A DNA stretch of 64,000 bases from Amphiscolops sp. MND2022 (Eukaryota), in assembly GCA_964187785.1 (NCBI GenBank), contig OZ076409.1:48114001-48178000 (forward strand), read 5' to 3'. The translations under genes were made by a program, and so were the position numbers. This document shows positions 10,961 to 64,000 of this stretch, in pieces; positions within the stretch are counted from its first letter, which is position 1; each line of letters opens with the position of its first letter. The notes beneath the pieces were generated by a model. The model worked only from the letters and a program-made list of their open reading frames with translations. It ran no database searches and was not told the DNA's origin.

Positions 10961-10961
10961 G

Positions 10962-17800: not shown

Positions 17801-17953
17801 GGATAAGACACAAGGTTCAAATACCACTATGTCGACATAGTTTCATTGAAATTTTGGTCCAATAAAAAATAATTGATGTCGACATAATCCTATCCATTAC
17901 CTTGACTGACTATTAAAAGTCGCTCATTTAATTTTACAGCGGACAAATTTTGC

Positions 17954-30665: not shown

Positions 30666-30750
30666 GTTCCAATGGCTCAGTGGTTAGACCACTGGAATTT
30701 TACGTTCGCGCAGCTTCACACGTGTTCGAGTCCGCGACAAAGCATATTTT
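30666..30750 (+). ncRNA. Putative tRNA-like Pol III unit in the left TIR (mirror copy at 51005-51089, minus strand)
   Basis: A-box TGGCTCAGTGG (30673-30683), B-box GTTCGAGTCC (30724-30733), TTTT at 30747-30750. No canonical cloverleaf. Confidence 0.5.
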
Positions 30751-30774
30751 AATTTCCCCATTAGTGGAGGGGGG

Positions 30775-30782
30775 TATATAAG
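30775..30782 (+). promoter_or_regulatory. Candidate TATA box in the TIR, pointing inward (mirror at 50973-50980)
   Basis: GGGG-TATATAAG-AAAG in both TIRs; motif only, no transcript evidence. Confidence 0.35.
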
Positions 30783-31916
30783 AAAGTTAGTATATTATTT
30801 TTACTGACAAGTTACTCATTGCTTAAAAGGATTTGTCATCCTTTCCTCCGCTTTCGAGCAGTATTGGCAATAGTAACGTGAACTTTACCAGGACACACTT
30901 TCGAAAGGGGAAAAGATTGTGTGTTACATAAACTGGAGCTCTATAGTGAATTAACAAGTGGGAAGTAAATTCCTGTGTAGTTAATTTGCGAGCGGTGGAC
31001 GTCTGTAGCACATGGAATATAGTGTCGGTCGACGGAAGCCGCGATAAGCTTTTGCGTTAAGCTTTTGCGTTAAGATAAGTTGCCTAATATCTCAACGAGC
31101 AGAGCTTCGCGAAACGATTTTTGAGAAAAACGTCAGGAATAAAAGTTATAGAGTATTCACACATAACAATTAAAAATAACTAATAAATGAATTATTTGTC
31201 ATGTCAATATCTCTCATTCAAAGAATTTGTTGAAAAATACAGACTAAAAAATGAAGCAACTTCTAATGTAAAAATAAAAGAAATCCTAGACATACTCAAA
31301 TTAAACTCAACTGGAAGATACATGAGAAGAAAGCAAAATGTGACATTGAGCTGTCATTGATGTTTTGAAAACTAACAAGTCGCGACTAAATGACGTCTGT
31401 CTCCTTGGAACCTGTCTCTACATATGATCTTTTCACCAAGGAAAATAGACGTTGTCGCGTAAAGTTCAAGAAAATTTTGGCGTAAAAAAGGTTTTTCTGT
31501 TTAGGTACAAGCTATGTTTCATGCTCTCATTTATCATTTTTCATTTGAGATTCGAAGTCATGTAAAAACCTCAGCAGTAGTTAGCGAAATGTCGATTCGG
31601 CTCAAGCAAATTTTTTGATGTGATAGCAAGTTCGTAAAATCCTTAAAAATAAACATATTTTCAATACACATCATCAAAAGTTAACGTTTTTCCACAACTA
31701 AAAATTAACAGTATGTAAAACACGAATGAATGAGAAAAAGTTCAATATTCGGACCATGTGCATCCAAGTGGTGACACAAGTGTTCACGAAGCTCTGCAAA
31801 ATAACCACCACACAAATTTTTGCAACGCAAAACACAACACATAAATAAAAAATACGATATTCCAAGTTTGATTTATCTCAGTTTAAGTGATTTTAACAAT
31901 GAAAAATAACTAATAA

Positions 31917-32327
31917 AAGAAACTTTTATCATTCAAAGAATTTATTGAAAAATACAGACTAACAAAAGAAGCAACTTTCAATGTAAAAATAAAAGAAACC
32001 TTAAAACTTATGAACATAACCGAGTGTGGAAAATACATGAGAGATGATAAATTTACCACTACCAGTGGTAGAGTTAACTTATATCCAACTAAAGGAACAC
32101 ATTGGGTTATGTTTGTTAACGAGTTTTATTTTGATTCATATGGCTGTCCACCTCCAACTAATATACTTAATCACATTAAAAAGGGTATCTATTCAGAATA
32201 TCAAATTCAGAACAACGACAGTTATTGTGCAGCGTATTGTTTATATGTATTGTATCTCACAAATATAATTGGCTTCAAAAATGCAGTACTAAGTTTATAC
32301 TATCAAACTTTCAAACTTAATAAATGA
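31917..32327 (+). pseudogene. Adenain/Ulp1-like cysteine maturation protease (start codon apparently mutated to AAG)
   Basis: GTHWV...YFDSYG...QIQNNDSYCAAYC gives the catalytic H-D-Q-C order of the adenoviral protease family. Confidence 0.85.
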
Positions 32328-32532
32328 AGAAAATATTACTTATTCAGCTCAATATAAAATTATACAACCACGTAAAAATAATCCGAATCCACTAAGCTCC
32401 GCGCAGAGCTCCACCCCGAATCCACAGAGCATTGTGAATAGTATACCGAATGAGAAAAAATTAACAAAAGATAGGCAAGAATTTATAAAAAACATAGCTG
32501 CTAGTGGATTCAAACAATTTAATCTATAATAA

Positions 32533-33700
32533 ATGGATCTATCAACCTTCGTAACATATGATAAAAAAGAATTTCTTCTTTTAGGTATTGCAAAATCTAA
32601 TCAAGAAATTGTTGAAAATACTCATTCTAAACCACAAGAAACTCTAGAATTTAAAATGAATAAACAAAAAAAATCTTTCTCATTTGATGTTCCATTGGAA
32701 TTACCTGAAAAATGGATGATGGGAGTAACAAGTTTAGAAGTGTACAATACAGTTAATAATATCACTAACAGCAATATTAAACTAGAGATTGTTCTGAATG
32801 ATCAACAACTCAAAGAATTTAACCTTGACTGTGAATTATTAGTGTTTGTTGAAGATTTATACAAATCCTATTTTGTTAAACCTTATAAGTATAATGAATT
32901 TATAGAGAAGATTAATAAACTTAAAACTAATAGTTATTCCAAAAAGAAGAAACTTACTAGAGTAGATTTTACCTATTTAACAAAGATAATTGAATCACCT
33001 AATCAAATATATAACGAACGCCTCTATCAAGAAAAAATAAAGCAAGAAAATATAAACCAAGAAAAAGAAAATCAAAAAAGAATAATTCAAGCATACAAAG
33101 ACTACCTAAAACATGAAAAAATAAATTGGGAGGAAATAAAGTGGGAGGAAATAAAGTGGGAGGAAATAATTTTGGAGGAAACAACCCAAGAAAATCAAAA
33201 GGATGAAGTGAACCAAAGAAATCAAATAAATTTACCCCCCTTTGAAATTATTGAAAACGATTTCTTTGGAATACAACTAACACCAGGAGATTATGAACTA
33301 GTTGATATAAATAAGGCTATTGAACAAAAAATTAATGAAAGTAATTATGATTTTAAAATTGACATCCAAGCAGATACAATATCAATGAAATCAGTTTTAA
33401 CAACCTCAAACCCTATTCATTTTAACTCCAGATCTAACATTCTTTTGAGATTTACAAACAAGGATTACCAAGCAGGAACTCACGCTTCAGAAAAACCAGG
33501 TATGATAACAACCACAGACAAAGTTCATTTGAAGTGTGATTGTATAGATGGTTCAATTGGTAATGGTATACGAGAACAAATTTTATTTCCTTCAATCTTA
33601 GTGCTCCTCCCGGATATAAAATTATATAAGAACCAACCACTGTTTTGTAAAAAATTATAAACAAAACACGACTGGTTACCATCCAATTTTTCTTTTCATT
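32533..33700 (+). pseudogene. Minor capsid protein (penton), with insertion and 3' frameshift/truncation
   Basis: C-terminal VHLKCDCIDGSIGNGIREQILF followed, after a frameshift, by PGYKII, typical of Polinton pentons. Central EEIKW x3 repeat insertion. Confidence 0.65.
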
Positions 33701-33725
33701 TCTTTTCATCCCATCCCAGTTTCTT

Positions 33726-33866
33726 TTCATCCCATCTGATCCAGACGAGATTGTGGATCAAATAAAACTACTTTGTTTTGAAAAAGTAGGAGGAAATGAC
33801 AGTTTTCTACTCAATGAACAAATCATAGCAATTGTAGATAAACTTTTGGAGTATGAATGCATTTAA
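33726..33866 (+). pseudogene. C-terminal remnant of a conserved Polinton accessory gene
   Basis: FIPSDPDEIVDQIKLLCFEKVGGNDSFLLNEQIIAIVDKLLEYECI resembles the P-SDP-EL..RL.LL..K.AGN...NEI motif recalled from Polinton ORFs. The 5' part is missing. Confidence 0.5.
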
Positions 33867-34002
33867 CAAATCAACACCAAAACATGATCTCCTCATTTTT
33901 TAAAGGATCAGTTTGTGGATTGAAGATCTTGTAATTTGGATTACATTCATTACAAATCCTGTACCTACTCCCATTTTTATCTTTCAATGTATTTCCTAAT
34001 AA

Positions 34003-34493
34003 TTAATTGAATTTTTCGTTCCATGCTTCTCTGCACAAACTTTTGAATTCCTCAAAAGACATATCAAAACCTGCTATGTCCCTATGAATTTGTTCTACAT
34101 CTTTCAGTGTTTGTTGACATGAAAGTTTTATATTCGAATTGTTTCTAACTGTCTTTTTTGGTGCATCAAAATAACTCTGACATAAATAATAAACATCACA
34201 CAACTTATGTCTTCCTCTAGTAAAAAATGGATCAATCAATTTCTGGTTGGTGTCTAACATATCATCAAATACTACACAACACCCCCTATACTCTTCCTAA
34301 TCCCCCACATTTTCTTCCACTTCTACTCCCTGCGAAGCTCCACCAATATCAATGTCCTCATATTGTTCCGGACTCCTCGTAATGATACGAATTTGTTTCT
34401 CTGGATCTTCCAAAGGAATCAATCGTAATTTATTCAACAACGAATGAGTCTTACAACAAAATGATGGACCAATTATTAATGTTCTTTTACACT
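34003..34493 (-). pseudogene. A32/FtsK-like packaging ATPase 1, catalytic part (5' part displaced by the BEL insertion)
   Basis: Walker A GPSFCCKT (G>C), Walker B VVFDDM, RGRH and YYLCQSY...TVRNN motifs. Internal stop at 34297-34299. Confidence 0.85.
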
Positions 34494-37400
34494 TGTCATG
34501 CAATGCATGATTTAATTTCTCGGACTTTTATAACAATGAAATTGACTGATGAATCACGCCATTGATGAATCATTATTGCCTTTGATGTCACTCAATCCAA
34601 ATAATTGACAATTTAATCCCGCAAAATGGATTTTCAACTGGATATGTTTCGACAAGGAATTTTCAAGGTTATGTTTTGTTTCCATGCCCTTCATAGTCAA
34701 CCCTTTATGTGAACTGTTACATTGAATTAAGCCTAAGTCTTAGACCGCTTTCTTGAACATTCAATATGAAATATTACTAAACCTTTTACTAAGTAACGCC
34801 TTTCATTTCCGGTATTTGGAGACTGCCTGGAGACATACAGGTACTAAGTAGTCTTTCTCTAAACTTTCTTCAACTACTATACACATTATTTTGGCGCCCC
34901 TTATTCTGACCCGTTTACCCTTAATTACCTTAGTTTTCTTCGTTGGTTTGCGAAATTTTCGTTACAAAGTTCTAATTTTATTGCCTTATCTTAAGTTTGT
35001 TGATTTAATTGACATACTACGAAGGATACCAGTTTGATTAAAATGGTTTCCACGCGAAGTCAAGGTCAAAATGATGACAACGTGGATGTTGATGTAGCCA
35101 ATAGCAATGAGCTCGACGCATTGAATTTGGCTCATGGGCAAACTTCCAACGATAGCGTTGCTAACATGCAAGTGGCGCAAAATGATAATGAAATTTCACG
35201 CTTGTTGTCACTACAGCAACTTAGTCTGGACGACATTCATTGCTCACTTGATTTTGTCAATAATTGTATTGACGCAAACGAATCCACTGATATGTGTCGG
35301 GAATTTTTTGTGGAAACAGAGCAAAAGGTGGATGAATTTGAGTCTTTAACGAAAGAAATCATTCTACTTGCAAATACCCACCTTCATACCCAGTCAGAAC
35401 GACTAGCTGAGGTTAAGAATGACTTGCGAACTATTCGCTTGAAGGTAATGAAAAAGCGCAGTTCTGATCAATTGTGCAAAACTGCTCGGCCTACGGTAAA
35501 TGACACAACTTCTAATGAACGTATAGTCACTTCTAACAACCCTCTACCGGCCTTCACAACTGTTGACCTCTCTTCAGAGTCGAATATTCCTGGAATTTCT
35601 TCAACAACTGCTGGAACCAATGGGACATTATTCCGCGAAGCCACAGTCGATCAATCGCATTTCGCTCCTTATTTTCCTCAAGGAGTTGGAACATCACAGA
35701 GGATGTCTTCAACATTCCAAAAATCAATTCCCAAAGTCACACCCACAGTGTTCAATGGAGACCCGCTTCTCTGGTTAGATTGGATTGGACTCTTTAATGC
35801 CACAATTCATTCATCTGACATGACAACAGCTGAAAAAATGATGCATTTACAAACACTTGTCAAGGATCAAGCAAAGTCTACCATTCGTGGATATGGGTAC
35901 AATGGAGACATGTATTTCATTGCACTGAAGCGCCTTCAAGACACATTTGGAAATCCAACTAAAATTATCACCTCTTTTCTGCAACGCCTCAGCAGCCACC
36001 CTTCTCCATCTCTCCGACAACCCGATTCTTTTACTGCCTTTTCCAATTTTTTGACGACCTTAGTTGACACTTTCGAGCAGTTGAATTTTCAGCACGACAT
36101 ATGCTCGACAACCAACGTTCAACAAGCCTTAGCAAAGCTACCCACAGAAACTAGACTAGCCTGGAACCGACATGCCGTCTCTTCAGGACTCCAACGACCG
36201 ACGCTAAAAGACATTACCTCATGGTTACAGGAATTCGCTCTCGCCTGCAGTGAAATTCCTGTAGCAAAACATCTCGCACCTTCTGAACACTCGACAGCAA
36301 AGTTCTTTCGACCTTCAAGTTCAACAAGCAGCGCTCTCCACCAACCTTTTGCCAACGACAAAACACACTCAGCACCATCAACGGACAAAGTCAAAAAAAA
36401 TTTCTGTCCCGAATCAAAGGGATGCGATCTGCTTCGACAATGCCCTCATTTCAAATCCCTTAATGTTCAGAACAGATACGAACACGTTAAAAAATTGAAA
36501 CTTTGTTTCAATTGCCTAGGACCTCACGCCTTTAAGGATTGTAAATCCGAAACATCCTGCCGAATTGAAGGTTGTCACCGACGACACCACACGTTGTTGC
36601 AACGTGATCAGCAACCAGCAGTAACTTCAACAGTCAACACCCGACGTCATCAGCCTGGTATTTTGCTTTTTGTTCCCGTTACCTTCTCTTACGGAAACAA
36701 TCGACTTTCGACATACGCCCTGCTGGATTCCGGAAGTTCTGTGACACTACTTGCCGAATCAGCCGCCAAACAATTGAAACCCAATCTACAGGGTAATCAA
36801 CCACTCAGTGTTTCTGGGATCAACACTGTTGCAGAAATACAAGTAGCAACCCTATAATGTTTCATCGGACCGTACAACTCCGCTGTTCAGCCTCACAGAC
36901 TCGACAATGTTCTTTCAGTGCCAACACTGAACGTTCAAACAGCGCAACCGAATTTTCTCAACTCAGTTTGCCAGCAACATCCTCATTTTAAACACGTCAC
37001 ATTCCCGCAACTACATTCTAATAATGTTTCACTCCTGATCGGAGTGGACGCTTATGATGTTATTTGCAGCCGAGGAGTCATTTATGGACCACCCAACACA
37101 CCCAAAGCACTGAACACAGTTCTTGGATGGACAATAGTAGGAACCAGCAGTCATCAGCTACCAACGACAGCAGAGACACTTCTCGTCCAAACGCCCACAT
37201 TGGATGACGAACTTTTTCATCAAGTTCAAAATTGGATGCGACTTGACATTGAAGGAGTTTCTTCAACGAAAAAAGCGTTTTCAGCCAACGATCGTCGCGC
37301 CGAGAACATTCTCCAGTCTACAACAACGAAAGTTGGAGACCGATACCAAATCGGCCTTCTCTGGAAACCAAATGTTGATCTGCCCAACAATCGATGGGTT

Positions 37401-40400
37401 GCCGAACGCCAGCTGCGCATCCTCGAACAACGCTTGCAGAAAGACCCAACACTCAAAGAGCAATACAAGAAAACAATCGTTGACGATCTTGCCAAGGGTT
37501 ACATCGTAGAAGTACCGACAGTCGACGCCACTTTGAAAAAATGGTACCTTCCACATCATCCAGTTACCAACGTTAACAAACCAGGAAAAGTTCGTCGCGT
37601 GACAAATGCCATCAGTGTCTTCAAAGGACAGTCACTCATCAACAATTTACTTACAAGACCGGCTTTTCTTTGCAACCTAACAGGATTGATAATGCGATTT
37701 CGCCAACATTCAGTCGCAATATCCGCCGACATTGAGGCCATGTTTATGCTAGTGCTTGTGGACCCTAAAGACCGACAGTATCTACGTTTTTTATGGAGTA
37801 ACGACTCGAAGAAAATCGAATTCGAGTACACCAGGCATATTTTCGGGGCAACAGACTCCCCTTGCGTTGCCTGCTATGCCGTCCGCAAATGCGCCAAGGA
37901 CAATGAAGCTGTTTATCCTGGTCTGCCCGCAATTTTGCAGCGGAACATTTATATGGATGATTTGTATGTCAGCCTCACATCAGAAGAAGACACCACAGAT
38001 ACAGCTCGGAAACTTCGGGAAGTTTTAGCATCAGGAGGTTTCAACCTAACCAAATGGAGCTCGAACAGCCGTAAGTTCCTAGCAGGTTTGAGCCCCGAAC
38101 TACGAGCAACTGGAGCCAATCACGACGATAAATTGACACTGCAGCGGGTCCTTGGTTTGCCATGGGACCCAGAGAAAGACACGTATCTCATCCAACTCGA
38201 AAGCTACCGTAAAGCCAAGGACATTCGAATACCAACTCAACGCCATCTGCTGAAATTTACTTCTTCTATATTCGATCCCTTAGGGATCACAGCACCGTTA
38301 ATCATTCGTTTGCGATATATTATGCAGCTTGCTTGGAGCACCGGACAACAATGGGACAAACCTATTCCAGAAGATCAACTCGCAGAATTCCAACAGTGGA
38401 CCGATGAAATTGACCATCTCGAGAATATTCAACTACCTCGACAGCTGCATAATTACCGAAGTCAGCCCGAACATCATGAACTTCGTGTTTTCTCCGATGC
38501 GTCCGAGAAAGCATTCGCCGCAGTTGCCTACCTGCGTACAACTCACGACGACAGTCACGTCAGCATCACTTTTTTAATCGGAAAAGCAAGAGGCGCCCCA
38601 ATGAAACGACTCACAATTCCGAACTTAGAACTTCAAGCAGCCACATTAGGAAGCCGCCTTGCTACCTACATCAAAGAAGAACTCGACCTCCACATAGCTC
38701 GGACATTCATGTGGACGGACAGTACAACCGTTTTACACTGGATCAACGCCTCTAATCAAAGACACAGGATTTTCGTAGCGAACCGCTTGAATATTATTTT
38801 CGACTCGACAGAAGCTTCAGATTGGCGATACGTTCCAACTATCGAAAATCTCGCAGATGATGGAACAAGAGGATATCAAGCTAACCAGATGAATGCCACT
38901 TCACGTTGGATTCAAGGACCCTCATTTCTACAGAAAAAAGAACAGTTTTGGCCAACACAGCCTCCAATTTCTCAACAAGTTGCTATGTTTCATGCCGACG
39001 CACCACCTGACTGCAGCACTAGCCCTCCTTTTGACATTACCCGCTTCAGTAATTGGAACCGTCTAATCAGGACCGTTGCTTTCTGTTTCCTCGTTGCCGA
39101 CAAAGCCAAAAACAGTCAAGCCTCCCTTACTTTGGAACATGTTATCAAAGCATTCAAGTTCCTCATCAAGAATGCTCAGCAGCAGTCCTTCTCCAAAGAA
39201 ATAAACGAGCTTTTGCAGAAGAAATCCCTATCTAACAAGTCTAGGATTGTACAACTCAGTCCCTTCATCGACGACCATGGCTTCTTCCGTTCTCGTGGCC
39301 GCCTTGGAAAGGCCTCGATAATTCTTTGTAGCCGATACCCAGTCATCTTGGATGCTGAGAACCCTTCGATCCACCTCTACTTGAAACACGTTCACGACAC
39401 CAATGGACATTGTGGACTCGAGTTCAGCCGTGCCCTGATTCAACAACAATTTTGGATTCTGAAAGCCCGGAAAGTGTTACGACGAATCATCCGACATTGT
39501 ATCACCTGCCGCAGACAGCAACAAGATGTTATCCAGCCAATAATGGCTGATTTGCCGAAAGAAAGGCTCCCTTCTACAATCAATTATCCCTTCCGCACCA
39601 CTGGAATTGATTACATGGGACCGTTCTTCATTAAAACTCCACGTGCCGAAAAACGGTACGTCCTTTTCTTTACCTGCCTCGTTACAAGAGCTGTTCACAT
39701 CGAAGTTACTGCAAAATTAAACACAGACGACACAATTCTAGCCATTCGACGATTCATTTGCCGCAGAGGCCAGCCTCAGTCTGTCAGATCCGACAACGCA
39801 ACTACATTTGTCTCTGCCAACAAAGACCTAAAAGCTGCTTTGAAGAAACTTGAATTAGCGTCACCAGAGATTTCAGCTCGTCTTGGACTCCAACATATCG
39901 CCTGGTATTTCAACCCACCCGCTGCTCCTCATTTTGGGGGCGCATGGGAGCGGTTGATCCGCTCTTTCAAAGACACCTTCTACAAAATTGTTGGATCAAG
40001 AACCCTTCAAGAACCGACGCTACACACCTTTGCCTGTGAAGTTGAGGCTATCATGAACAACGGCCCACTTCTCCACGTTTCTTCAGACGTCACCGACATG
40101 GAGCCTTTACTCCAAATCATATTTTACTTGGTAGACCTCAGCCAGTTGTACCAATAGGTATCTTTGACCAAGACGCAGACGCCTACACCTGGAAGAAAGC
40201 CCAAGTTCTGGCCGACAATTTTTGGTCCAGGTTCATCAAAGAGTACCTCTCCACACTTCAACGAAGAACCAAGTGGACAAAAAACTCAGAAGATTTAAAT
40301 CCTGGAGATTTAGTCTGGATTTTAGAAGACTTCACAGCCCGTGGAATATGGCCCGCTGGAAGAGTTAAATCCGTCACTAGAGGAACTGACAATGTAGCCC

Positions 40401-40936
40401 GCTCATGTGACCTCGCCACATCTTTTGGAATTATAAAAAGACCTGCAGTGAAACTTTCGAAACTCTTCATTTGTGACCGCGACTAACCCAGACCATCTCA
40501 AACTTCATGACTTGCAAACTCTGGTAGTTTATTTGCCTCCTGCAAATGGGGCCGGCCATGTCATGCTTTTCTCGGACTTTTATAACAATGAAATTGACTG
40601 ATGAATCACGCCATTGATGAATCATTATTGCCTTTGATGTCACTCAATCCAAATAATTGACAATTTAATCCCGCAAAATGGATTTTCAACTGGAGATGTT
40701 TCGACAAGGAATTTTCAAGGTTATGTTTTGTTTCCATGCCCTTCATAGTCAACCCTTTATGTGAACTGTTACATTGAATTAAGCCTAAGTCTTAGACCGC
40801 TTTCTTGAACATTCAATATGAAATATTACTAGATCTTTTACTAAGTAACGCCTTTCATTTCCGGTATTTGGAGACTGCCTTGAGACATACAGGTAAAAGT
40901 AGTCTTTCTCTAAACTTTCTTCAACTACTATACACA
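34494..40936 (+). mobile_element. BEL/Pao LTR retrotransposon inserted in Polinton 1
   Basis: LTRs at 34494-34885 and 40559-40936 (TG..CA); 5-bp TSD ACACT (34489-34493, 40937-40941); PBS TGGCGCCCC at 34892. Confidence 0.97.
35043..40486 (+). pseudogene. pol: BEL/Pao gag-pol polyprotein (in-frame stop at 36855-36857, frameshift near 40108)
   Basis: Gag FNGDPLLW...; knuckles CFNCLGPHAFKDC and CRIEGCHRRHH; protease LLDSGS; RT YLPHH / ADIEAMF / YMDD; RNase H FSDASE; integrase GIDYMGP / SDNAT / WERLI. Confidence 0.95.
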
Positions 40937-41425
40937 ACACTTATTATCATTATCATTATTATTCTTATTATGTGTGGGAACCTGCGTGAAGCTACGCGAA
41001 TGCCCTTGTGAAAACCCTTGGGGATGTAAGCCACGCGCAGCTTCACTCCCAGTATGTGCGAAGCTACGCAAATAGCCTTGCGAATACTCATGTGTGGGAA
41101 CCTGTGCGGGAACCTGCGCGAAGCTACGCGAATAGCCCTGCGAATACCCCTGTGCGGGAACCTGTGCGAAGCTATGCTGATACAAGTGTTGTTTCTTAAT
41201 GTGGGATCTTAAATATCTCTTATTTAATTCCTTATTACAAAATTCACTTGTCACCTTTTTATTAAAACATTCTTTACAAGTACTGTACAGTTTACCCTTT
41301 TTGTATGAATAGAAGTCCATCTTCATCTCATTACAAACTTTACATCTTTTTTTACTAGAGCAATCATCACACATATTACTCTCACTACTTTCATTACAAA
41401 TTAAACATCTTGTATATGTACTCAT
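40937..41425 (-). pseudogene. N-terminal zinc-finger and repeat region of ATPase 1
   Basis: CxxC pairs and a C2H2-like FCNK...HIKKQH, then GYSRSFAQVPAQ repeats. Joins in frame across the TSD: ...DNDNKC|KRTLIIGPSFCCKT. Confidence 0.8.
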
Positions 41426-41866
41426 TTACTTAGTAAAAAGTCACTAATAATCACTAAGCATTCACTATGTAATCACTCAGTATCAATATGTAATCACTAA
41501 GCAAGTTTCACTAAATCACTATGTATTCACTATACAATCACTAAGAGCATTTATTTCTCTAAGATAAAAGAGTATAGTGAAATTTAGAGAAAACAAATGC
41601 TCTTAGTAATGCTTAGTGATTGTATAGTGTTTCTTAGTGAAAAATCACTAATTACTCAGATATCTAAGAATCACTAAATAATCACTAAATAATCACAAAT
41701 TACTCAAGAAATCACTAAGGTCGCACTAGACATTATTTAGCTAATTTTTAGTAAAAACTTTTTGCATGATCATATATAATTTTCTTAAAGTCCTCTTTAA
41801 CTGAATCACTAATTAGTGGTTGTTGCATACGCTCAACGTAGTTGTCTATTTTGGATTCTTTCACTT

Positions 41867-42881
41867 TTATTTTATTTTGTTTACAATAATATACATGATA
41901 AAAGCTATGTTGTATGATGTTATTTCAATTGTCTGGTTAGACATCTCCTCTAAAAAAACCTTGAGTTTGTTATACTCATCACCAGTGAAAAAATAACTTT
42001 CATATGCAACGTAATCCTCTGGACCCCACTTATTCTGTTTGCTAGAATCATAAATTAAATTGTACTTGTGGTTTATTACCTTGTACTTCTGACATCTTGT
42101 GTCAAATTCAATATTACCAAATTCTAACTGATCGCGGAAGTATTTCCACCTAAGAAGGAAACCAGGATCTTTAATTGAATAAGTTTGTACAATCGACTCG
42201 AAAAAGTTATCTGGGTTATTTATTGTTAAGTATATTTTGAAACAATTTTCTCTTACAACTGGGAGAACATCCTTTGCATAGCGAGCGAGATAAATTACTA
42301 CTATACCATGATGTCCACCAAACCTAAATAAATCCTCCACTTTTGTTTTGAGACTCTTGTATGCACCTGCATCATCCACTATTACCGTTTTATTAGCAAG
42401 TGATTCAATACCTATTTTTTCTAACTGTAACAAGGGTACAAAGTTGGAAGCAGGAAACTTTTTTTCATCTCGTCCAAATACTACATAACTTCGTTGAATC
42501 TGTGTTAAAAAATGCTTGAGGAAAGATGTCTTCCCTGACGCACTACTTCCATAAATTAGCATATGACAGTTTGTATGCGTATTACTGACTGGTTGAGTTA
42601 GTTGCAAAACAGCGCCATGTTCTTGTGAAGCTCCACCTTCTTTGTTTGTAAGATGAGAGTATTTGAACCCTTCAAATTGTAATAGTTTTCTATATATTTT
42701 TTTTGGTACCATTTAGGGCGAATATAACGCCAATATATTATGAATATAATTACTATTATAATTATACAAATAATAAAAAATATTGCGTAGCTTTGCGGAT
42801 TAAATTTCCGTAACCAACTGGCACGTTCGGTAGTGCGCCAGCATTCGCCTTGTGAGAACATCTGTAATAATTATCCTTCAT
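41867..42881 (-). pseudogene. Packaging-type ATPase 2 with N-terminal transmembrane segment (frameshifted)
   Basis: Walker A GSSASGKT, Walker B IVDDAG, RFGGHHG, VRENC. Hydrophobic IFFIICIIIIVIIFIIYW upstream, which is contiguous with the ATPase in element 2. Confidence 0.8.
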
Positions 42882-42914
42882 TTATTTACAAACAATTGTA
42901 TAATACTATAATAA

Positions 42915-43811: not shown

Positions 43812-43825
43812 TTTTTTTATTGTAA

Positions 43826-45050: not shown

Positions 45051-45092
45051 GAAACCAATTTATTATAATGGTTATGAATATATAATTTATAA

Positions 45093-49020: not shown

Positions 49021-49124
49021 AATAAATTTACGAACTTAATAGCAGTATATTTTTCAATAGTATCTTTTCAATTATTGAGTGTTTATTTTTATTTTATTTT
49101 TTATGTTAAAATTGAATAAATTAA

Positions 49125-49751: not shown

Positions 49752-49754
49752 TTA

Positions 49755-50554: not shown

Positions 50555-50599
50555 TTATTAAGACGAAAAAGTTAAAAAGGTGTCGAGAAAATCGTTTCC

Positions 50600-54130: not shown

Positions 54131-55248
54131 GGAAGCACATGAGCTCGGGCAATGTTTTCTTTATGACCACAGTTATCATTTGTTGCTTGATTGATTTTGT
54201 GCTCTCCTATTTCATTGACAACTCTTTCGATTGACAACTCTTTTCGAGCAAAAGTTTTGGACTTCGTGAGTGAAATGTGGAGATTCATTGAGTTGGGAGA
54301 AAATTGAAGCAGGTGTTTGCGGAAATTTTGCATGTTTTGAATTGAATAAAAAACTGATGTTTCCCCTTATTGAACTAACCAACAGATGCTGATACTCCTT
54401 CTCTTACAACTTATTGTGGATATAACCTCATATTGATCAAAATAACAAGTTCGCATTTCAATTGTTATTCTAACGAATTACACGGCTTCACAAAATTATA
54501 AATATACTTCACAAGGCTCAAATAACAATCTGACAGCAATGTTTTGTCGTATACTGCGTTCGTCAAAAATCCGAGTGCATTATATTGAATTATATTTAAG
54601 TATGGTGGATTAGTACTGTTTTAGAAACAAGCTGGGACCGCCGTCCGAAGTCGACGCTCCGCTCAAATTTCAAAAAACCATGTTTCTGGAAATAATGCAA
54701 AATACACTATGGTTTGAATGTTATCAATTTCGCAGTGCCACGACATGCCCTCAAAGAACGCATAGGGCTCGAAAATCACTTTTTCCCCAACTGAAAACGA
54801 CAAAATAAAACATTTTTCCGATTTTTTTCTTCGGAAAGAAGTCTCATAATGCCAAAAATGGAGCTTTAGAGAGAAACTACTCAGAGAACTTTTATCAAAT
54901 CTATAGTACCAAAAATATACAGTAGGGATACGCATCAGACTCGGAAACCGAGTTCTCCGGAGCTCGAAACAAAACAATTATAGTAGTAGTGGAAATCCCG
55001 ATACTGGCCACAAAAACTCCAAAAATTAAAAGTACTCAAAACCATTGATTTTAAGGACTTTTTAGAAAACATATCATTAAAAACAATGGTTTTCCGATAC
55101 TGGCCAACAAAACCCCAAAAATTAAAAGTCCGCGAAGCTACGCCAAAACCATTGATTTTAAGGACTTTTTAGAAAACATATCATCAAAAACAGTGTTTTT
55201 GCCATGAAGCAAAATTCACTAACCTCTATAGTTTAATGTCAACGTTGC

Positions 55249-55367
55249 AACCAGCGCTAATGTACAACCAGCGTTAATGTACAACCAGCGTTAATGTACA
55301 GCCAACGTTAATGTACAGCCAACGTTAATGTACAACCAACGTTAATGTACAGCCAGCGTTAATGTAC
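55249..55367. repeat. 7 x 17-bp tandem repeat (AACCAGCGTTAATGTAC) in the terminal region of element 2
   Basis: Read directly from the sequence; a ~95-bp duplication precedes it at ~54998-55200. Confidence 0.9.
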
Positions 55368-55412
55368 CGGCGCATACGTTATTCTTACATAACTCCAACT
55401 AACATTGATTCG

Positions 55413-55658
55413 TCTCCCATAGCTTAGTGGTTATAGCATTGACTAAAGTTAAGGCTTCGGCCGGAGTGTTTGGGGTTCACTTCTATCCAACGTCCCCCAG
55501 TCTTTGTTACAACTTACATGCTATGGGAGAATAATCACCAATGGCACAGTTCTTAAAAAGGATAATCCCTGCTGTGGAAACTCTTAGTGGAACGGACTCC
55601 CGATGGGCTTTGAGTTTACCATAGGTATGCCAATACCAATGGCATGCCTATGGGTTTT
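55413..55658 (+). ncRNA. Putative structured tRNA-like/Pol III RNA in the terminal region of element 2
   Basis: TCTCCCA-TAGCTTAGTGGTTATAGC (A-box/D-arm); GGC-TTCG-GCC hairpin; 11-bp closing stem with GCTATGGGAGA (55520-55530); 14-bp 3' hairpin (55619-55653) directly before the first TTTT. Confidence 0.55.
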
Positions 55659-55686
55659 GTATTTTTCAACTTTTTCATCTTAATAA

Positions 55687-56502
55687 ATGTATGAAACTCC
55701 GTCTCTTCATAAGTTTGGTTTTTCTAGTGAACAGCTAAAACTGAGGGAATATCAGGAGCTAAAAGATATGATAAAAAGTCAAGAAAAATTAGCCCAAATA
55801 GCACATCCCAAATTGAAAGAAGATTTGCAACGCGATTTTGAAAATGACATAGAAAATCAAGTAGAAGAAAAAATGCTAGACGCGGTAGCTATCGCGAAGG
55901 CGCATCAAACACTAGACCCACAGGAAATTCAAGATGTTTTATTAAACACAAAGTTAATGAATGATATTTATTCCCAGTTTTCAGACCTTTCAAAAACCAT
56001 AAATAAATTAGAACAAAATATGAAAAAATCTTTCGCCGAACAAAGAACTGCTTTAGTAAATGAGGTACTAAATTTAATACACAACAAAAGTTTTGAAATG
56101 TTAACAGTCCGTAATTTAAAGTTTATGAGTCAGGCGGGTCAAGCTGGAATGATTTTAAATGAAGATGAAATAGATAATATTCTTAATAGCCTAGATCAAA
56201 ATAAAATTACTATAACTAACAACATAATTCAACTGCTTTATGACAAAGGTTTGTTCAATTCCTTTCCCAATAAAGATCAAGCTTTTGCAAATTATCTAAC
56301 TTTCAGTGAAACATACTTATCGGAGAAGTGTGGAAAAACAAAACCTACTTCAGATGGTGAATATTATCTGTCTGATTTCGATTATTATACCAGAGAAAGT
56401 ATTTTGAAGTCATTGAAAAAAGATTCCTGTATAGATATAGTTGATAAGAAACACAGAATGAAATTAACACCAACGGAAATAAGTTTCGTTTTATATGAAT
56501 AA
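55687..56502 (+). CDS. Conserved hypothetical Polinton protein, 271 aa, intact
   Basis: Open ORF with TAAATG start; close homolog of 49755-50554. Confidence 0.8.
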   Translation: MYETPSLHKFGFSSEQLKLREYQELKDMIKSQEKLAQIAHPKLKEDLQRDFENDIENQVEEKMLDAVAIAKAHQTLDPQEIQDVLLNTKLMNDIYSQFSDLSKTINKLEQNMKKSFAEQRTALVNEVLNLIHNKSFEMLTVRNLKFMSQAGQAGMILNEDEIDNILNSLDQNKITITNNIIQLLYDKGLFNSFPNKDQAFANYLTFSETYLSEKCGKTKPTSDGEYYLSDFDYYTRESILKSLKKDSCIDIVDKKHRMKLTPTEISFVLYE

Positions 56503-56505
56503 TAA

Positions 56506-57097
56506 TTGGAACAAAAACTCTATCCCTCAGCGCCCTATTTAAATAGCGATGTAGAATCAGTGATAAATAAGCAATTATCAAAAGTATGTAGTTTCGATAA
56601 TTCTGTTCAAAATATCATGATGATGATGGCGATGAAATTTTATGAGTTGGAAAAAAATATATAAGCAAAAATTCACCAAATAGAAACTAATAAATAACCT
56701 AATTAACTCGACAGATGGTCTTATAACAATAGGAACAACTTCAGCATCCGTTACACTAAGTATTGCTGGTGTGGGCATTATAGTTGTTCCAATCACTGCA
56801 GGAGTTGGTTGTGCAACTGGTATTCTTGGTAAAATTTGTTCCAGTTATTTGAAGAAAAAGGAGCAAATTATAAACTTAAGTACACTTTAATTCAGAAGAC
56901 ACATGGTGACTTTGGACAACTTCATGTCACAAGCCTAAAAGATAACCATATAGATGAAAAAGAATAACATCGATTGATTTGTGAATATGTATGAAAGTTA
57001 TCGTGCAGCTTCGCGCGCAGCTTCACAATCACAAAGTAAAAAAATTCAACAAGCGACAAACAAGCTTGATACACCAAAACTAACCGTCGTTTTATAA
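56506..57097 (+). pseudogene. Membrane protein homolog of 49125-49751 (decayed)
   Basis: EQKLYPS...GTTSASVTLSIAGVGIIVVPITAGVGCATG, with stops and frameshifts. Confidence 0.75.
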
Positions 57098-57193
57098 TGA
57101 AGGTATCCCATTTTAACAACTGTTTTAACATAAAAAAGCAAAACAATTTGAAAAATATTTCGCTATTAAATTCGTAAATTTTTAATTAAAAAA

Positions 57194-60100
57194 ATGGAGA
57201 TTTGTAGTATTTGTATTTCTGATTTAAAAAATCCCTTAAGCCTGATCATCTAAAATCAGTAAAACATTTGGAAAAAAATATCAATATTTTTGTTTAAAAT
57301 ATAATATATTTCTGCCTCTATCAGGCAAGTCAAATCATCTAAATTCAAATGATCACAAGAATAAAACCAAACATCAACACATTTGGTGTGAAGATTGTGG
57401 TAAAAGTATGTGGTATATTGTGGTATAAGTGACAAAACAAGACATATCCAAAGAAAAAGTATTTCACAAATGGGTTAAATCAGATATTAATTACAATCAC
57501 ACATTCCCTGATCATACAATTCACAACACATTAATGCAGAAATTAGATGATGAACATTTAGAAGGATCAGGTTTTGTGGTAAACGGTATTGTCAATGTTA
57601 TATTAGAAATATACAAAGTCAATGATATTCAAGCATCTTCGTGGATTGAATTACCACCAAAGTAAAAGAATAGTCAATCAATTATAAACATTGAAAAAAA
57701 TTGATCAATTTTGTTTTCTATGGTGCATCCTAGCATATCTATATCCCGTTGAAGACAATAAAAAAATAACTTCAAAATATGCTATGTATATACCTACTTT
57801 ATGTACCAAAGGTTAAGAATTCCCTATGAAAGGTAAAGACATTCTCAAGTTCGAAAACTCAAATAATTTAAACGTAAATGATTTTGAACCCACAAAGAGT
57901 GTGCTAACACACCTATCCTCATTAACAAAAAATACTTACAAACACAAATAGACTTGCTGCAATTTGAAAATCATTATTGCCTAATAACAAAATTGCCTTG
58001 TCTAAAAAATAAAAATTCACACATGAAATGGGTGTGTAGAAGATGTCTAACAGCATTTAGTTTAGAACAACTTTTATTCGATCATACATCTCGTTGTATA
58101 AATCAACAACCAACTAATATCACATTCAGTTGAAAGGATCACTTAAAATTCGAAGACTACCACATGAAGATACCACTCATAATTTGAGTATATGCGGATT
58201 TCGAATGTAATAATCAATCCACAAGAAACGACCAGAAGGTATTATTTGAACAAATTCCAATTGCAGTAGGATTTTATTCAATAACACCATCTGGAATTTG
58301 CTATTACTCATACTTCGGCGAAAGCTGCGTAACATGGTTTGTAAAAGAAACATTTTCATTAGAAACAATTGCTTGTAACTGTTTCAGAACCAATATTCTT
58401 CTTAAAGTGACCCCCGAAGAAGAAGAAGAATCATTTCAACACTCCAACATATGTTGGCTTTGTGAATATCCACTTGGTGGTACGCAAGGCGCGCGCAGCT
58501 TCGCATCCAATGATAAAGTTCGAGATCATGATCATCTTACAGGCAAGTACCGAGGAGCAGCTCACAACAGGTGTAATTTGAATTGAAAAAAAGTCATCAA
58601 GTTTTGTTCCCATATTTTTCCACAACTTTTCGGGGTACGATTGTCATTTAATTTTTGAAGAACTCTTAACATCAGCTTAAAATCTAAAGTTACCAATAAA
58701 TATTATACCAAAGTCAATGGAAAATTATGTGTGTGTGCAAGTAGGTTGTTTAAGGTTTTTAGATTCATACAGATTTTTGAGTAGTAGTCTACAAAAACTT
58801 ATAACATCATTAAATGATTTTCCTTATATGCCAAATGAGGGCCTAACTGATGATTTTTTAAAGAAAAAACTAGCTTATCCATACGAAAAATTCAATCTTA
58901 ACAACCTGCATGAACCACTAAATCTAACAAAAGAGGACTATTGGTCAACATTAACACAATCTCACCCATGTGAGGATTATATAAAAAGAACCCAACAACT
59001 GATTGACACTTACAACATTACAACAGCACAAGAACTAACAGAATTGTACTTTAAAATGGATGTACTACAACTCACTGACGTGTTCGAAAACTTTGTTGAG
59101 AAGTCTACACTTGAATACGGCATCAATCCTTTGTACAGTTACTCTTTACCTGGTTATACATGGAAAGTTGGTTTAAAACTTACTAAAATTAAATTAGATT
59201 TCATAAAAGACAAACAGTTATTATTACTACTTGAAAACAATATTCGCGGAGGAATTTCAAGTGTAATGGGACCCAGATTCATTGAGTCAAATGAAAATAC
59301 TAAATTACTGTACATTGATGCAAATAACTTGTATGGATGGGCAATGAGTCAATACCTTTCTACTGGAGACTTTAAAAAGATGCAAAACTGTCACGAAGCT
59401 AGGCAATATGATTCTACACTGATGAATGAAATTACAGAAGACATTTTGAATACACCAGATGACAATGAATTTGGATACTTTATAGAATGTGATTTAGAAT
59501 ATCCAGCAGAAATTAAAGAAAAAACCGAAAACTTTCCACTTTGTCCTTATCAAACAAAAGCCGATCCAAATCTTTTCTCAGAATACATGAACAGTGTAAA
59601 ACAATCCAACTACAAACCAACCGAGAAACTTATGTGTGACCTAACAAATAAATATAATTATATGATGCACTACATGATGTTCAAGTTTTACACCCAGATC
59701 GGGATGAAAGTAACAAAGATTCACACAATCTACCGGTTCAAACAATCACTTTGGTTAGAAAAATACATTAATCATAACACACAAAAACGCACCAAAGCAA
59801 AAACAAACTTTGAAAAGGATTTGTACAAATTAATGAACAACGCTTTCTTTGGTAAGACTATGGAAAATGTTAGAGACCCGACTAATTTAGAGTTTATCCC
59901 TCACACCAATATTGATCAAATAATAAAAAGACAATCGAAGCTTTAAAAGAATCACTAATAATTACTCCGAATTCAGTGTTTACAAGTTTGATAAGGAAAA
60001 AGTAATTTTTGATAAACCAATATACTTGGGGTTTAGTGTTTTAGAACTGAGTAAATTGTTAATGTATGAGTTTTATTATCACAAATTACAACCATATTAT

Positions 60101-60775
60101 AACAATAAAATTAAACTGCATTACATGGATACAGACTCATTCATTCTAAGTATTAAAACTGGAGACCTTATAAATGATTTGGAATACTTCAAAGATGATT
60201 TTGATTTCAGCGAGCTCGACCCAAGTCATGAGTTGTACAACTCAATCAACAAGAAAGTTATAGGTAAAATGAAAATAGAAACATCACCAATTATTGAATT
60301 AGACAACTTCGTAGCTTTGAGATCTAAATCATATTCTTTTAGCTATGGAAGCACAGTTCAGAAAGCAACGCAAAAGTCAAAACAAAAAGGAATACAACAT
60401 ACACCAATTTATTCACAATTTATAAATTCATTATTTAACTCTGAAACAACAACTGCAACTAATTATTCTATTAGAAGTAATGCTCACAACTTAACTGTTC
60501 AGAAACAAGATAAGCTAGCTTTGAATCCTTTTGATGACAAGCGTATGTACTTGAATCCAATACAAAGTTTATCATGGGATAAACACACACAAAAAGGTGA
60601 TTGTCCTTGTATACTTTGTATAAAATTAGTTTGTTTGTATTACACCGAACTGAGCACAAAGGATGGCACAAGCCTCCCAGATGAAGAAATATGCTATAAC
60701 ATTTGGACTCTGAAAGAAAAATTGAATCATCAACAGCTTTTAAATCTGATAAGTGATCGGGCCCATTTATTGTGA
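57194..60775 (+). pseudogene. polB: Protein-primed PolB of element 2 (fragmented)
   Basis: FHNFSGYDCH, YIDANNLYG, KLMNNAFFGKTMEN, YMDTDS and FDDKR motifs; endonuclease VII-like RDHDHLTGKYRGAAH. Confidence 0.93.
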
Positions 60776-60899
60776 TAACTATCGTGATAACTGGTGTGAC
60801 GCGTAGCTTCGCGATAGCTTTCGCACACACACCCATTATTTTAACATTATTTTAACATTATTATCACGTTAGTTATCACATCATTAGTCTCATATCAAA

Positions 60900-62143
60900 T
60901 CAAACGAGGTCAAAATGCCTTTGCCCATCACTACTAATACTTATTAGTTTTGGGGTTAATACAAGTGCATAAGCTATATAATCTGCTACATCAATGGCAG
61001 CATTAAATTTAAACTCTAAACGGATTGGTTGACTCGCAATGATATCCCTTTGTTTGCTGAGGTCAAATACATAAAAATTATAATTTGTTCTGAATTTGTT
61101 CAAATCAATAAATGGGTTGAGTAAGTTAGTTTCACTATTCAAGTGACAAAAGTTTTCAATTTCACTATATGCTTGATCATATTTGTCGCGGTCGTAATCA
61201 CATTCTATCCCATCATCGGGATATTTTTCTGATCCTATTTTACAAACAGCATTACTAATTGGCAACCGGTCAAACACTGCATTATCATGAACCAGAGAAT
61301 CAATTTTATTTCTAGCTTGAAATCCAACAATCACAAAAGTTGGAGTCTTTTGCGCAGCTTCGCCTCCACTGCTGCCTAATTCAAATGTCCAATTCGAATT
61401 CGTGTTAACATCTTTTCTAAAAATAATTCGTTCCGTGTAACTCAATTCGGTTGGATCTTTATTTAGAATTTGGTCCATGACAAGTTGTTGGTTTTCGATA
61501 CTGGGAACATAGTGTGGGATATACCAACCAATGTCTTTAAGAACCACTTTTGCAGCATCCACTCCAACACTTCTTAAAATGGTGTCATTGTTAGTGTTCC
61601 GTTTTAAAGTAAGAGTGTAGCCCAACCCATAAGTTATTTTTCTTGATCAGCAAATCCAAAGTCTTTTAGTTTTATTCTCACAAAAAAGGTTCCTTTCTCA
61701 TTTTTGTTGTTTGTTAGTTCTTGTCTTCTGACACTCAAATTTTCTTCAAACCCATACAATAACTGGGAAGTTTGACTAGTGCTTGTTAGAAGTTTATACA
61801 TTAAAGGAATCAAGTGTAAATTGTCAACTTTTTCTAGGTGTTTCCCATTAGAAGTTGTTAATTTGGCTTCACTAAATAGAGAGATTGGCCCAAAGTTAAC
61901 CAATCCAATTTCATCACCATCAGCAAATCTTGTATTATTGTTTTAAAGTACTTCAAATTCTAGACTTTTGAAACTATTTTGTAAACATATGTATGCATCT
62001 TCTCTTGGCAAACTGACACTTATATTCGAGTTTGCGTTATTGACTGTCGCCAAACTACTTGGACTATACTATATGAAATCAATTTTATGAATAGGTTTTT
62101 CAAGAGTGTATTTATTTTTTAAAGAAAACATATCTGTGTTCAT
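60900..62143 (-). pseudogene. DJR major capsid protein of element 2 (frameshifted)
   Basis: ORFs 61634-61903 and 60900-61625 are colinear with 43826-45050. Confidence 0.8.
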
Positions 62144-62212
62144 TTATAATAAAAAATTATTGCGAAAGCTCCGCGAAAGCTCTGTAAAACTATGTGGGCA
62201 CAGTTTCGCAAA

Positions 62213-63068
62213 TTACTCAAATTTGTGGAAAATATTCATATTTTCTAACGTTTTGTTGTTAGAGTCAAAGTTGAATATGCTTCTTAAAAAATCTTGTTCA
62301 TAGTATTTTCCTCGAATAATTTCTCCATTTTCATCATTTAGAGTGTATGTTACTGGGTTTGTTTTGTTGATGCTGTGTATTTTAAAAAGTTCTCTATTCC
62401 AATTTGTTGTATAACCTTTTGAATAAATATTCCTTTTGTCAGGAACTCTTACAAAATCCCCCACTTGGAATTTGGGTTGTTCCGGTTTATTAACAAAAGT
62501 AGGTGGATCTATTGGTTTTTTATTCGCTTCAAAAGGTGTCATTTTTGTTGTGGTATGGACACGATTAAATATACTTATCCAAAGCATTATTAATGTGATT
62601 CAACCAGTTACCTTTACCCTCAATATACATTGGTTCTTTGATTAAGTCCAAAAGTGTTCTATTGAAACGTTCAACAAAAACAGCCTTCAAATCTGAATTA
62701 GTTGAATAAATTTGAATGTTTTGCTCTTTTAAATATTGTAAAAATGTTGTGTTGTAAAACTCTTTACCTCTATCACTCCAAATTTTGTGTGGTTTTCTCT
62801 TCTCTTTTTCAATGAGACCTTTTAATGCAGTAGTTGTACTTTTTAATGATTTATCTTTGAGGGGAATCGCCCATGCATATTTAGTATGATTGTCAATTAT
62901 TGTCAATATAAACTTGTAGTTTTTGTTGTATTTGCCTAAATTTGAGCGATCAATTAAATCGATACTCCAACATACATCTTTATAGTGAGTTTGTATTTGA
63001 ATTCTTTGAAACTTCTTGATTACAGGAGAGAATATTTCTTTAGCAATTTCTTTCTTATTTTGATTCAT
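62213..63068 (-). pseudogene. rve integrase of element 2 (frameshift near 62570)
   Basis: WSIDLID, IDNHTKYAW, WSDRGKEF, VERFNRTL; C-terminal KGYTTNW...YYEQD. Confidence 0.9.
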
Positions 63069-63091
63069 TTATAACAATTTTTTATAAATAA

Positions 63092-64000
63092 ATGAATAAT
63101 GATTATTGCTTGCAGAGCTATAGAAATAATTATCAAGGTGAAGGAGACGGCGCGGGAGGCGGCGCGAGAGCTGGTGCAACCAATTGGTTTCATAAAACAC
63201 GAATCTATAAACTAATCACAAATCCTATGTTTATTGTATGTTTAATTATATTTATAGGTATTAATGTTGTAATATATTGGAATTATATTCGCCCTAGACA
63301 GTTTAAAACAATTTATGAAAAACTACTACAATTTGCAGGGTTCAAATACTCTCATCTGACAAACCAGGAACGCGAAGCCCCCCTGGATACACGCGAAGCT
63401 ACGCACAACAACAACTCACATAACAATTCTCATTGCAACGCGCATTTCATATTCTATGGCAGTAGTGGCTCTGGGAAGACAAGTTTTTAAAAGCATTATT
63501 TGGCACAACGTCCCCACGACAAGTCCTGTGATAACCCCCGCAGTTATTTAGTATTTGGGAGAGATGAACGTGAGTTTCCCTCTCAAAATTTTGTACCACT
63601 ACTGCAGTTGGAGAAAGTTAGTATTGAATCACTTGCTAATAAAATTGTTGTACTGGATGATGCAGGTCCATACAAGAACCTTAGATTGAAAGTAGAAGAC
63701 CTTTTCCGATTTGGTAGACACTTGGGGATTCAAGTAATTTATCTCGCTCACTATGCAAAGGATGTACTTCCAATCGTGAGGGAAAATTGCTTCAAAATAT
63801 ACTTAACAATTAATAACCCAGATAATTTCTTCGAGCCGATTGCACAAACTTATGCAATAGCTTCCGCGAAAGCTAACGCAATTAATGGACTTAATTGGAA
63901 ATACTACCGGGATCAGTTAGAATATGGCATAGTTGAATTTGACACAAGGAGTCAGAAATACAAGGTATTAAACAACAAGTACAACTTAATTTATGATTCG
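63092..64000 (+). pseudogene. TM-anchored packaging-type ATPase of element 2 (nonsense TAA at 63488, runs off the window)
   Basis: MFIVCLIIFIGINVVIYW is in the same frame as Walker A GSSGSGKT; downstream LDDAG, RFGRH and VRENC. Confidence 0.85.

Follow-up and report, generated by a model that had tools for sequence, protein, structure and literature searches.

RESULTS

A short unit dispersed through two Polintons

The window analyzed here, a 64,000-nucleotide stretch of Amphiscolops sp. MND2022 DNA (assembly GCA_964187785.1, contig OZ076409.1, positions 48,114,001 to 48,178,000), contains two oppositely oriented Polintons: element 1 spans 30499-51257, and element 2 extends from 54982 beyond the end of the window. 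Both belong to one family, hereafter family A, in which a GC-rich insert of 12 to 14 bp (the unit) has been gained repeatedly at unrelated sites. Polintons, or Mavericks, are described as having terminal inverted repeats (TIRs) and a 5- to 8-bp target duplication (10.1101/2023.08.22.554363). Family-A elements have TIRs of 234 to 701 bp (about 578 bp with 96% identity between the pair in element 1, 305 bp with 99% identity in element 2), and a 6-bp duplication was found for element 1 and several other copies. The hallmark genes are present as well, i.e., protein-primed polymerase B (pPolB), rve integrase, double jelly-roll (DJR) capsid, and A32 ATPase, and the integrase, capsid, and ATPase of the window were identified by Pfam (PF00665, PF21738, and PF04665, respectively). 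The window PolB gave no Pfam match to its family, and we take it to be a PolB from the family-B polymerase motifs in its translation and from its full-length relatives. Altogether, a family-A element is a replicon of 14 to 15 kb with about 11 genes and hundreds of close copies.

The window motif, GCGAAGCTNCGC with up to 1 mismatch, was found at 24 positions in the 23,400 bp of element DNA versus 0.10 expected from an order-3 Markov model, and at none in the 6,352-bp BEL element nested in element 1 or in the 34,248 bp of host DNA. Counted by strand, the window held 33 matches versus a shuffle mean of 0.22. A wider grammar retrieved 34 units, 19 in element 1, 14 in element 2, none in host DNA, and one in the BEL element, a loose 13-mer at 37406. 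These counts bear out the initial annotation of the window, which had reported the motif throughout both Polintons and no full copy in the BEL element; on re-scanning, every coordinate that it listed carries a unit. It had also mentioned rare partial matches in host DNA; no match at up to 1 mismatch was present there. The observation holds: the motif is far more frequent than chance would allow, and it is more regular than it had first seemed.

Genome-wide, the exact 12-mer gave 3,642 strand-matches versus 138 for its reversed control, and the 14-mer pattern GCGANAGCTNNCGC gave 5,611 versus 155. Genomic context was checked for 11 clusters and 8 single matches taken from the first 100 matches listed: all 11 clusters and 2 of the 8 single matches lay in DNA homologous to the window elements, and the other 6 had no element similarity, which is about the control rate for that stretch. 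A capsid search, related families included, returned 2,120 candidates, of which 150 were scored. The family-A set of 73 copies was assembled from 60 of these 150 listed capsid loci (10 kb), the clusters, and both elements of the window; it contains 1,490 units in 734,684 bp (up to 1 mismatch, in the outer triplets), i.e., about 20 per 10 kb and 9 to 36 per copy. They comprise 688 12-mers, 693 14-mers, and 109 13-mers. Orientation shows no strand bias (115 versus 97). Units leave gaps of 974 to 4,002 bp, and their density, from 0 to 4.5 per 500 bp, tracks tolerance rather than spacing. In several family-A copies (L040/L181, L009/L184, and others), tandem unit arrays encode low-complexity protein termini with ATAN, ATAT, or SHTA runs, and the open frames of the major capsid protein (MCP) step by four residues (411, 415, 419, 423 and 413, 417, 421, 425).

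Both strands of the unit match a published mini-hairpin grammar

The unit follows the grammar GCG-N(1-2)-AGCT-N(1-2)-CGC, so that both strands, read 5' to 3', open with GCGNAGC or GCGNNAGC, then T. The variable base, first read as Y, is actually N, the loop pairs of intact 12-mers being AT (184), AC (115), AG (30), AA (15), and GT (3). The two half-site spacers vary independently, with 3 or 4 loop bases each; in the window, 62162 is a 13-mer, and 55882, 60811, and 63854/63866 are 14-mers. Both strands thereby match the grammar of the Hirao mini-hairpins, with folding predicted, a match that the initial annotation had overlooked. In the published data, GNA alone folds among 64 triloops, the folding tetraloops are GAAA, GBAA, GABA, and GTTA, and the stems GC..GC and CC..GG work while CG..CG and GG..CC fail (PMC13037366, section 2.3 for the stems). 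The same source gives a melting temperature above 82°C for GCGAAAGCT and of 76.5°C without its 3' T, and describes mini-hairpins as exonuclease resistant, all values being those of free heptamers or octamers (PMC13037366).

The enrichment of all 16 two-base stems around GNA was measured in family A and in its sister family B (see below). Family A gave 19.6x for GC..GC, 3.4x for CC..GG, 1.1x for CG..CG, and 0.4x for GG..CC, and family B gave 8.1x for CC..GG, so that the two stems published as folding are the most enriched of the 16; in host plus BEL DNA, every stem stayed at or below 1.5x. At least one half is in the published tested list in 848 of 887 intact units, and both halves are in 676 of 887. 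The GAA half is kept in 344 of 347 intact 12-mers, and single changes number 64 in the GAA half and 244 in the other (6 versus 24 at sites common to at least two copies). Since changes concentrate off the GAA half, one intact predicted hairpin seems to matter more than symmetry.

Precise gains of 12 bp without target duplication

A first method, the anchored pairwise comparison of the 73 copies, yielded 45 clean rows in which the empty site was free of the motif; 12-mers with a net length of 12 bp made up 33 of them (9 of the 33 non-coding). Target statistics used 30 of these 33 rows, after dropping one TIR mirror and two ambiguous cases, and found A at position -1 in 1 of 60 flanks. A second method, which added 6 right arms to the compared copies, yielded 37 isolated blunt 12-mer sites that are filled in some copies and empty in others. 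Of the 74 flanks, a single one had A at -1 (p 3e-12), and 38 had T at -3 (p 0.002); the target bias of insertion is symmetric. None of the 37 isolated sites showed a target duplication for the 12-mer. Flank pairs were blunt in 94 cases and GC-kept in 3 for 12-mers, versus 124 GC-kept and 2 blunt for 14-mers, whose net length is again 12. Target-site duplication, the hallmark of miniature inverted-repeat transposable elements (MITEs) and class II transposons, is lacking, with a 2-bp GC overlap in the 14-mer only. We also considered a "six-base ruler," in which the 14-mer core would land anywhere, and rejected it, because the core sits between a G and a C in 539 of 559 cases.

The three indels named at first are real: 12 nt at 48012, 24 nt at 55882, and 30 nt at about 58480-58509. 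The MCP site encoding GEAAQ, first taken as shared, is polymorphic across the family. Among unit-bearing indels of up to 40 nt, the length was a multiple of 3 at 136 of 140 coding sites and at 33 of 51 non-coding sites, where the mode was 12 nt (19 of 51), none measured 13 or 14 nt, and indels of 11, 22, and 23 nt stem from tandem arrays. The 12-bp length is thus intrinsic, because non-coding inserts peak at 12 too, and frame preservation is mostly a by-product of this length and not its cause. Selection removes the frameshifting classes and confines coding inserts to tolerant regions. Across 17 PolB sites in 12 unbroken PolB frames, units use all three frames and both orientations, and the 11 core PolB sites lie in poorly conserved stretches (mean conservation across 60 distant PolBs, 0.25 versus 0.50; p about 1e-5, with non-independent windows).

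Sister family B and the timing of the gains

Family B, found in the same genome, has 79 to 80% nucleotide identity to family A and the same gene set; in this family (L167-L180, G000), ORF1 and ORF2 are relocated between integrase and capsid. At 30 family-A unit sites, family B had no unit in any of the 26 that could be aligned and was exactly 12 bp shorter at 16 of them, and an outside PolB with 51% identity was also shorter at the PolB sites inspected. Units are thus gains. Six of seven 20-kb family-B loci have no 12- or 14-mer, and the seventh has 4 loose matches, two in flanking DNA and two in one 21-bp insert.

Family B has inserts of its own, of 18 to 21 bp, which start with CCGGAGG or CCGAAGG and often have a TA in common with the target; some carry GCGAAGC on the opposite strand. 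Two such insert patterns gave 190 and 1,159 matches genome-wide versus 0 for controls, and 41 matches in 40 loci correspond to about 6 sites. The change of stem between the families, GC..GC in A and CC..GG in B, is the strongest hint that what is conserved would be the predicted structure and not the sequence.

Both TIRs were available for 11 elements. Of the 20 units in these TIRs, 19 had a counterpart in the other TIR (17 identical), the unpaired one lying in a poorly paired alignment of 90.6%. TIR unit sets differ between elements, and both window elements are concordant between their own TIRs. Together with the absence of units from BEL and host DNA, this concordance suggests that insertion would take place in the replicating element, ahead of chromosomal integration.

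Range outside the two families

In IMG/VR, 15 pattern matches in loci related to the capsid were obtained and none was confirmed, and motif scans returned 6, 1, and 9 loci, none of which was similar by tblastn to PolB, MCP, integrase, or ATPase. Among 150 PolB relatives (148 distant), motif peptides were not in excess (14 versus 17.7 expected). Eighty metagenome PolB loci (418,548 bp) contained 2 full units and no excess of GCGAAGC (35 versus 30.8). The nearest outside PolB relative (L087, 51% identity) has GCGAAGC, GCGGGAGC, and GCGGAGC words at 2444-2937, within repeats lying downstream of the aligned core, and has no full unit. Literature searches (subscription papers and supplements being outside their scope) found no description of the unit in Polintons, in agreement with the initial annotation; the available text of the adintovirus paper PMC8502044 contains none. 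Exact unit sequences were matched in 7 papers, none of the 6 listed being titled on repeats.

Other features of the window

Feature coordinates are collected in Table 1. The open reading frame (ORF) at 32010-32327 may encode an adenain-like protease, as it has a His/Asp/Cys pattern; it had no Pfam match. At 30673-30733 and in the right-TIR mirror, the unit lies between two words that we take to resemble the Pol III A-box and B-box consensus; neither ARAGORN nor Rfam matched a tRNA in the TIR, and the fold z was -0.45. A hypervariable AT-rich array of 10- to 11-bp TTAGTGA-type repeats, at 41440-41780 and in the homologous region of other copies, sits between the ATPase and the zinc-finger ORF. 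The inner TIR edges (50610-50734 and 55231-55384) have tandem repeats of 13 bp and 17 bp, the 13-bp repeat being AGCT-centered and resembling the unit. Elsewhere in the window, 6262-12168 is a decayed long terminal repeat (LTR) retrotransposon with 164-bp repeats at 99%, whose ORFs are presumably protease-, reverse transcriptase-, RNase H-, and integrase-like, and 17747-21389 is a tandem duplication of about 1.58 kb (92 to 97% identical) plus a diverged third copy. CpG observed/expected is 0.60 in family A (units masked), 0.53 in family B, and 0.97 in window host DNA; the low element values suggest element-specific methylation or a viral bias.

Table 1. Polinton elements, units, and associated features of the window
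Feature	Position	Strand	Remark
Target duplication of element 1, GTCTTC	30493-30498 and 51258-51263		6 bp
Polinton element 1 (family A)	30499..51257	.	AGTAGT termini; decayed ORFs
12-mer, element 1 left TIR	30708..30719	-	Mirror at 51036-51047 in right TIR
12-mer variant GCGAAGCTCTGC	31099..31110	-	
Nested BEL/Pao-type LTR element in element 1	34516..40867	+	LTR pair 99%; internal control
Five clustered 12-mers, element 1 zinc-finger ORF	40986..41177	.	
12-mer, variable C-terminal linker of integrase	43490..43501	+	
12-mer, element 1 MCP N terminus	43830..43841	-	
Endonuclease VII (His-Me finger) domain within PolB	47348..47461	-	Pfam PF02945; candidate cutter
Exact 12-bp insert, element 1 PolB	48012..48023	-	Sister family 12 bp shorter there
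12-mer, then two 14-mers overlapping at GC	48709..48744	+	Period 10, then 12
Polinton element 2 (family A)	54982..64000	.	Extends about 5.3 kb past window
12-mer, element 2 TIR	55132..55143	+	In both TIRs
24-bp block in ORF1	55882..55905	+	14-mer (four-base loops) plus decayed unit
Two tandem 12-mers, ORF2 C terminus	57003..57026	-	
30-bp insert, loop of PolB endonuclease domain	58480..58509	+	Contains 12-mer (58493-58504)
12-mer plus 14-mer, PolB-MCP intergenic region	60801..60824	+	
12-mer, hypervariable MCP loop (GEAAQ)	61352..61363	-	Polymorphic within family
13-mers, MCP-integrase intergenic region	62162..62184	+	Period 11
12-mer, ATPase N-terminal region	63393..63404	+	
Two 14-mers overlapping at GC, ATPase gene	63854..63879	+	

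DISCUSSION

Protein-primed polymerases proceed by strand displacement from both ends, and both strands are exposed. We propose that the unit is probably an ultra-short, structure-defined selfish insert that moves by copy-in, its heritable property being a mini-hairpin predicted to form at both 5' ends. Strand displacement by pPolB would expose single strands on which units would fold, and a folded, exonuclease-resistant unit would then be transferred in full, by copying or by capture, into a break of another replicating element. The junction would be blunt for the 12-mer and would use 2-nt microhomology for the 14-mer (GC) and for family-B inserts (TA). Slippage at the common GC would build the tandem arrays of 10- to 12-bp period, and recombination between copies would spread filled sites. 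Mini-hairpins are described as stabilizing very short hybrids and helping ligation at nicks (PMC13037366), which makes such a capture plausible. The unit is likely among the smallest selfish DNAs, parasitizing the virus-like element itself, even within essential genes.

That the target bias is symmetric points to a break made by an enzyme. Nuclease domains are known in Polinton pPolBs (PMC11071308, 10.1101/2023.08.22.554363), and the endonuclease VII domain of pPolB, with its DHDH and CN motifs (residues 508-549 of the L009 PolB) and units inserted into its loop, might cut this break, although we find this doubtful. That domain would in any case be insufficient alone, because it is also present in lineages without the 12-mer. 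Templated insertion by Pol theta (PMC11292364) is a possible host route. In a bolder version of the model, which we offer tentatively and with a little less than even confidence, nothing but DNA structure would define the unit as a 12-bp replicator: its overlapping mini-hairpins, of which each strand bears one, would withstand nucleases where a protein-primed replicon is single-stranded and be pasted whole into new sites, and the stem families (GC..GC, and CC..GG plus GC..GC in the sister family) would be separate micro-parasites adding four-residue blocks to polymerase, integrase, and capsid loops.

Several points weigh against the copy-in model. The free intermediate and the enzyme are hypothetical, and the folding is predicted. 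No dedicated mobilizer was found: family B shares all of the ORFs, the ORF1 tail and the endonuclease motif among them (ORF1 itself had no Atlas match), and the endonuclease domain recurs both there and in 83 of the 150 PolB relatives, which show no excess of motif peptides. Empty copies outnumbered filled ones at only 17 of the 37 sites, a count in which strict flank matching undercounts empties, and a local-donor co-occurrence test, with site merging that is transitive and too coarse, speaks neither for nor against local donors. As to structure, one or both halves carry a loop outside the published table in 211 of 887 intact units; the AC..GT stem is enriched 3.2x in family A, unpredicted by hairpin theory, an excess that apparently comes from a few shared sites; the asymmetry between halves falls to 44 versus 81 when counted by flank-distinct site, the copies being related; and the second half of the commonest family-B insert is no GNA loop.

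The initial annotation had left two readings side by side, a self-propagating micro-repeat and a cis-signal. The first is supported by the precise polymorphic gains, the intrinsic 12 bp, the patchiness, and the absence in relatives, while the variable spacers, the unit-free gaps, the lack of strand bias, and a family B without 12- or 14-mers in 6 of 7 loci leave the second weakly supported. A selected cis-signal, in which mini-hairpins would be priming sites, landmarks free of single-stranded DNA-binding protein (SSB), nuclease shields, or packaging marks, and more units would mean better replication, has some appeal: mini-hairpins are described at the G4/St-1/alpha3 origins, at ssiA, and at N4 promoters and as binding SSB poorly (PMC13037366), no family-A copy falls below 9 units per 10 kb, and both strands are served, as two-ended strand displacement requires. 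We nevertheless consider it unlikely, as family B manages the same genes with few other inserts, the 80 distant PolB loci have no excess, and the patchy density follows tolerance. Such a benefit would moreover leave the exact 12-bp insertion unexplained and could merely add to it.

The symmetric target bias, together with the 2-bp GC or TA at 14-mers and family-B inserts, which resembles a target duplication, would also suit a micro-transposon mobilized by an enzyme, the retroviral-type integrase or a host transposase treating the palindrome as a tiny MITE. This is improbable: the integrase duplicates 6 bp at element ends (with a sample of 3 termini for its target preference), whereas the 12-mer has no duplication, the unit is unlike the AGTAGT termini, and a host transposase should strike host DNA and the nested BEL element too. 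Even less probable is a mutational by-product, with inserts made afresh by polymerase snap-back or slippage without copying existing units. Array periods of 10, 11, and 12 fit slippage, but isolated empty sites have no sequence in common with the insert, and particular variants such as GCGAAGCTCTGC recur at unrelated sites, which fits templated copying. Protein-level selection for short peptides (EAAQ, AQLR, RSFA), to which coding inserts in frame would conform, or a sequencing or assembly artifact can hardly be credited, given that the units use every reading frame and either orientation, that non-coding inserts are equal in length, that sites are common to many copies and mirrored in both TIRs with CpG-type changes, and that an artifact would also affect host DNA and family B.

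Comparison with known systems

HIP1, uptake sequences, and Chi are fixed-length motifs arising by substitution. The unit is like them a short motif far above chance, also within genes, and differs in its whole-unit insertion, variable spacers, restriction to the element, and lack of strand bias. The small dispersed repeats (SDRs) of cyanobacteria, attributed to Elhai et al. 2008 (cited in PMC3116915), are reportedly very small mobile repeats of about 21 to 27 bp; as so described, they are like the unit in small size and mobility and differ in being longer and in belonging to bacterial chromosomes. The unit has no GTAG/CGTC tag of the REP/REPIN type, and Pfam found no HUH family in the 16 ORFs scanned, five right-arm ORFs and the host genome lying outside that scan.

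Other likenesses come from organelles. MUSE1 of Podospora anserina mitochondrial DNA, with 11 bp and over 100 copies, is described as ultra-short, dispersed, high-copy, invasive, and without an encoded enzyme (PMC7218506, PMC1864894); going by that description, it is set apart by its mitochondrial location from our unit, which is a frame-neutral 12-bp double mini-hairpin of a nuclear virus-like element. The GC clusters of yeast mitochondria (GC42, GC18) are likewise GC-rich palindromes in AT-rich DNA, with rapid gain, a stem constraint, merging into composite arrays, and a mechanism described as unresolved, but they measure 18 to 42 bp, have AG/ACT flanking repeats, and are mostly intergenic, whereas the Polinton 12-mer has no duplication and enters core genes (PMC4478555). 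The double-hairpin elements of Allomyces and the repetitive hairpin elements of sponges are hairpin inserts too, sometimes within genes, and those of Allomyces have no flanking duplication; they are organellar, with longer conventional stems rather than two-base-pair mini-hairpins (PMC2800124). With the Hirao mini-hairpins d(GCGNAGC), d(GCGNNAGC), and d(CCGAAGG), the grammar agrees exactly on both unit strands, in the two loop lengths, in the two stems that are permitted, and in the 3' T of GCGAAAGCT, while the natural cases in the available text are single origin or promoter signals and no dispersed mobile insert (PMC13037366).

How repeats of 11 to 40 bp such as MUSE1, GC clusters, SDRs, and hairpin elements move is an old question for which few comparable genomes exist. 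Family A contributes numerous filled/empty pairs together with exact junction rules and a target bias, and the sister family serves as a control, which narrows the candidate machinery and makes it testable. Besides their place at origins and promoters, our study suggests a natural evolutionary role for the Hirao mini-hairpins, and it shows how viral proteins can acquire insertions in their loops. Although not a member by sequence or replicon, as far as these can be compared, the unit is short, dispersed, high-copy, and polymorphic with a net gain, and it works like the ultra-short invasive elements.

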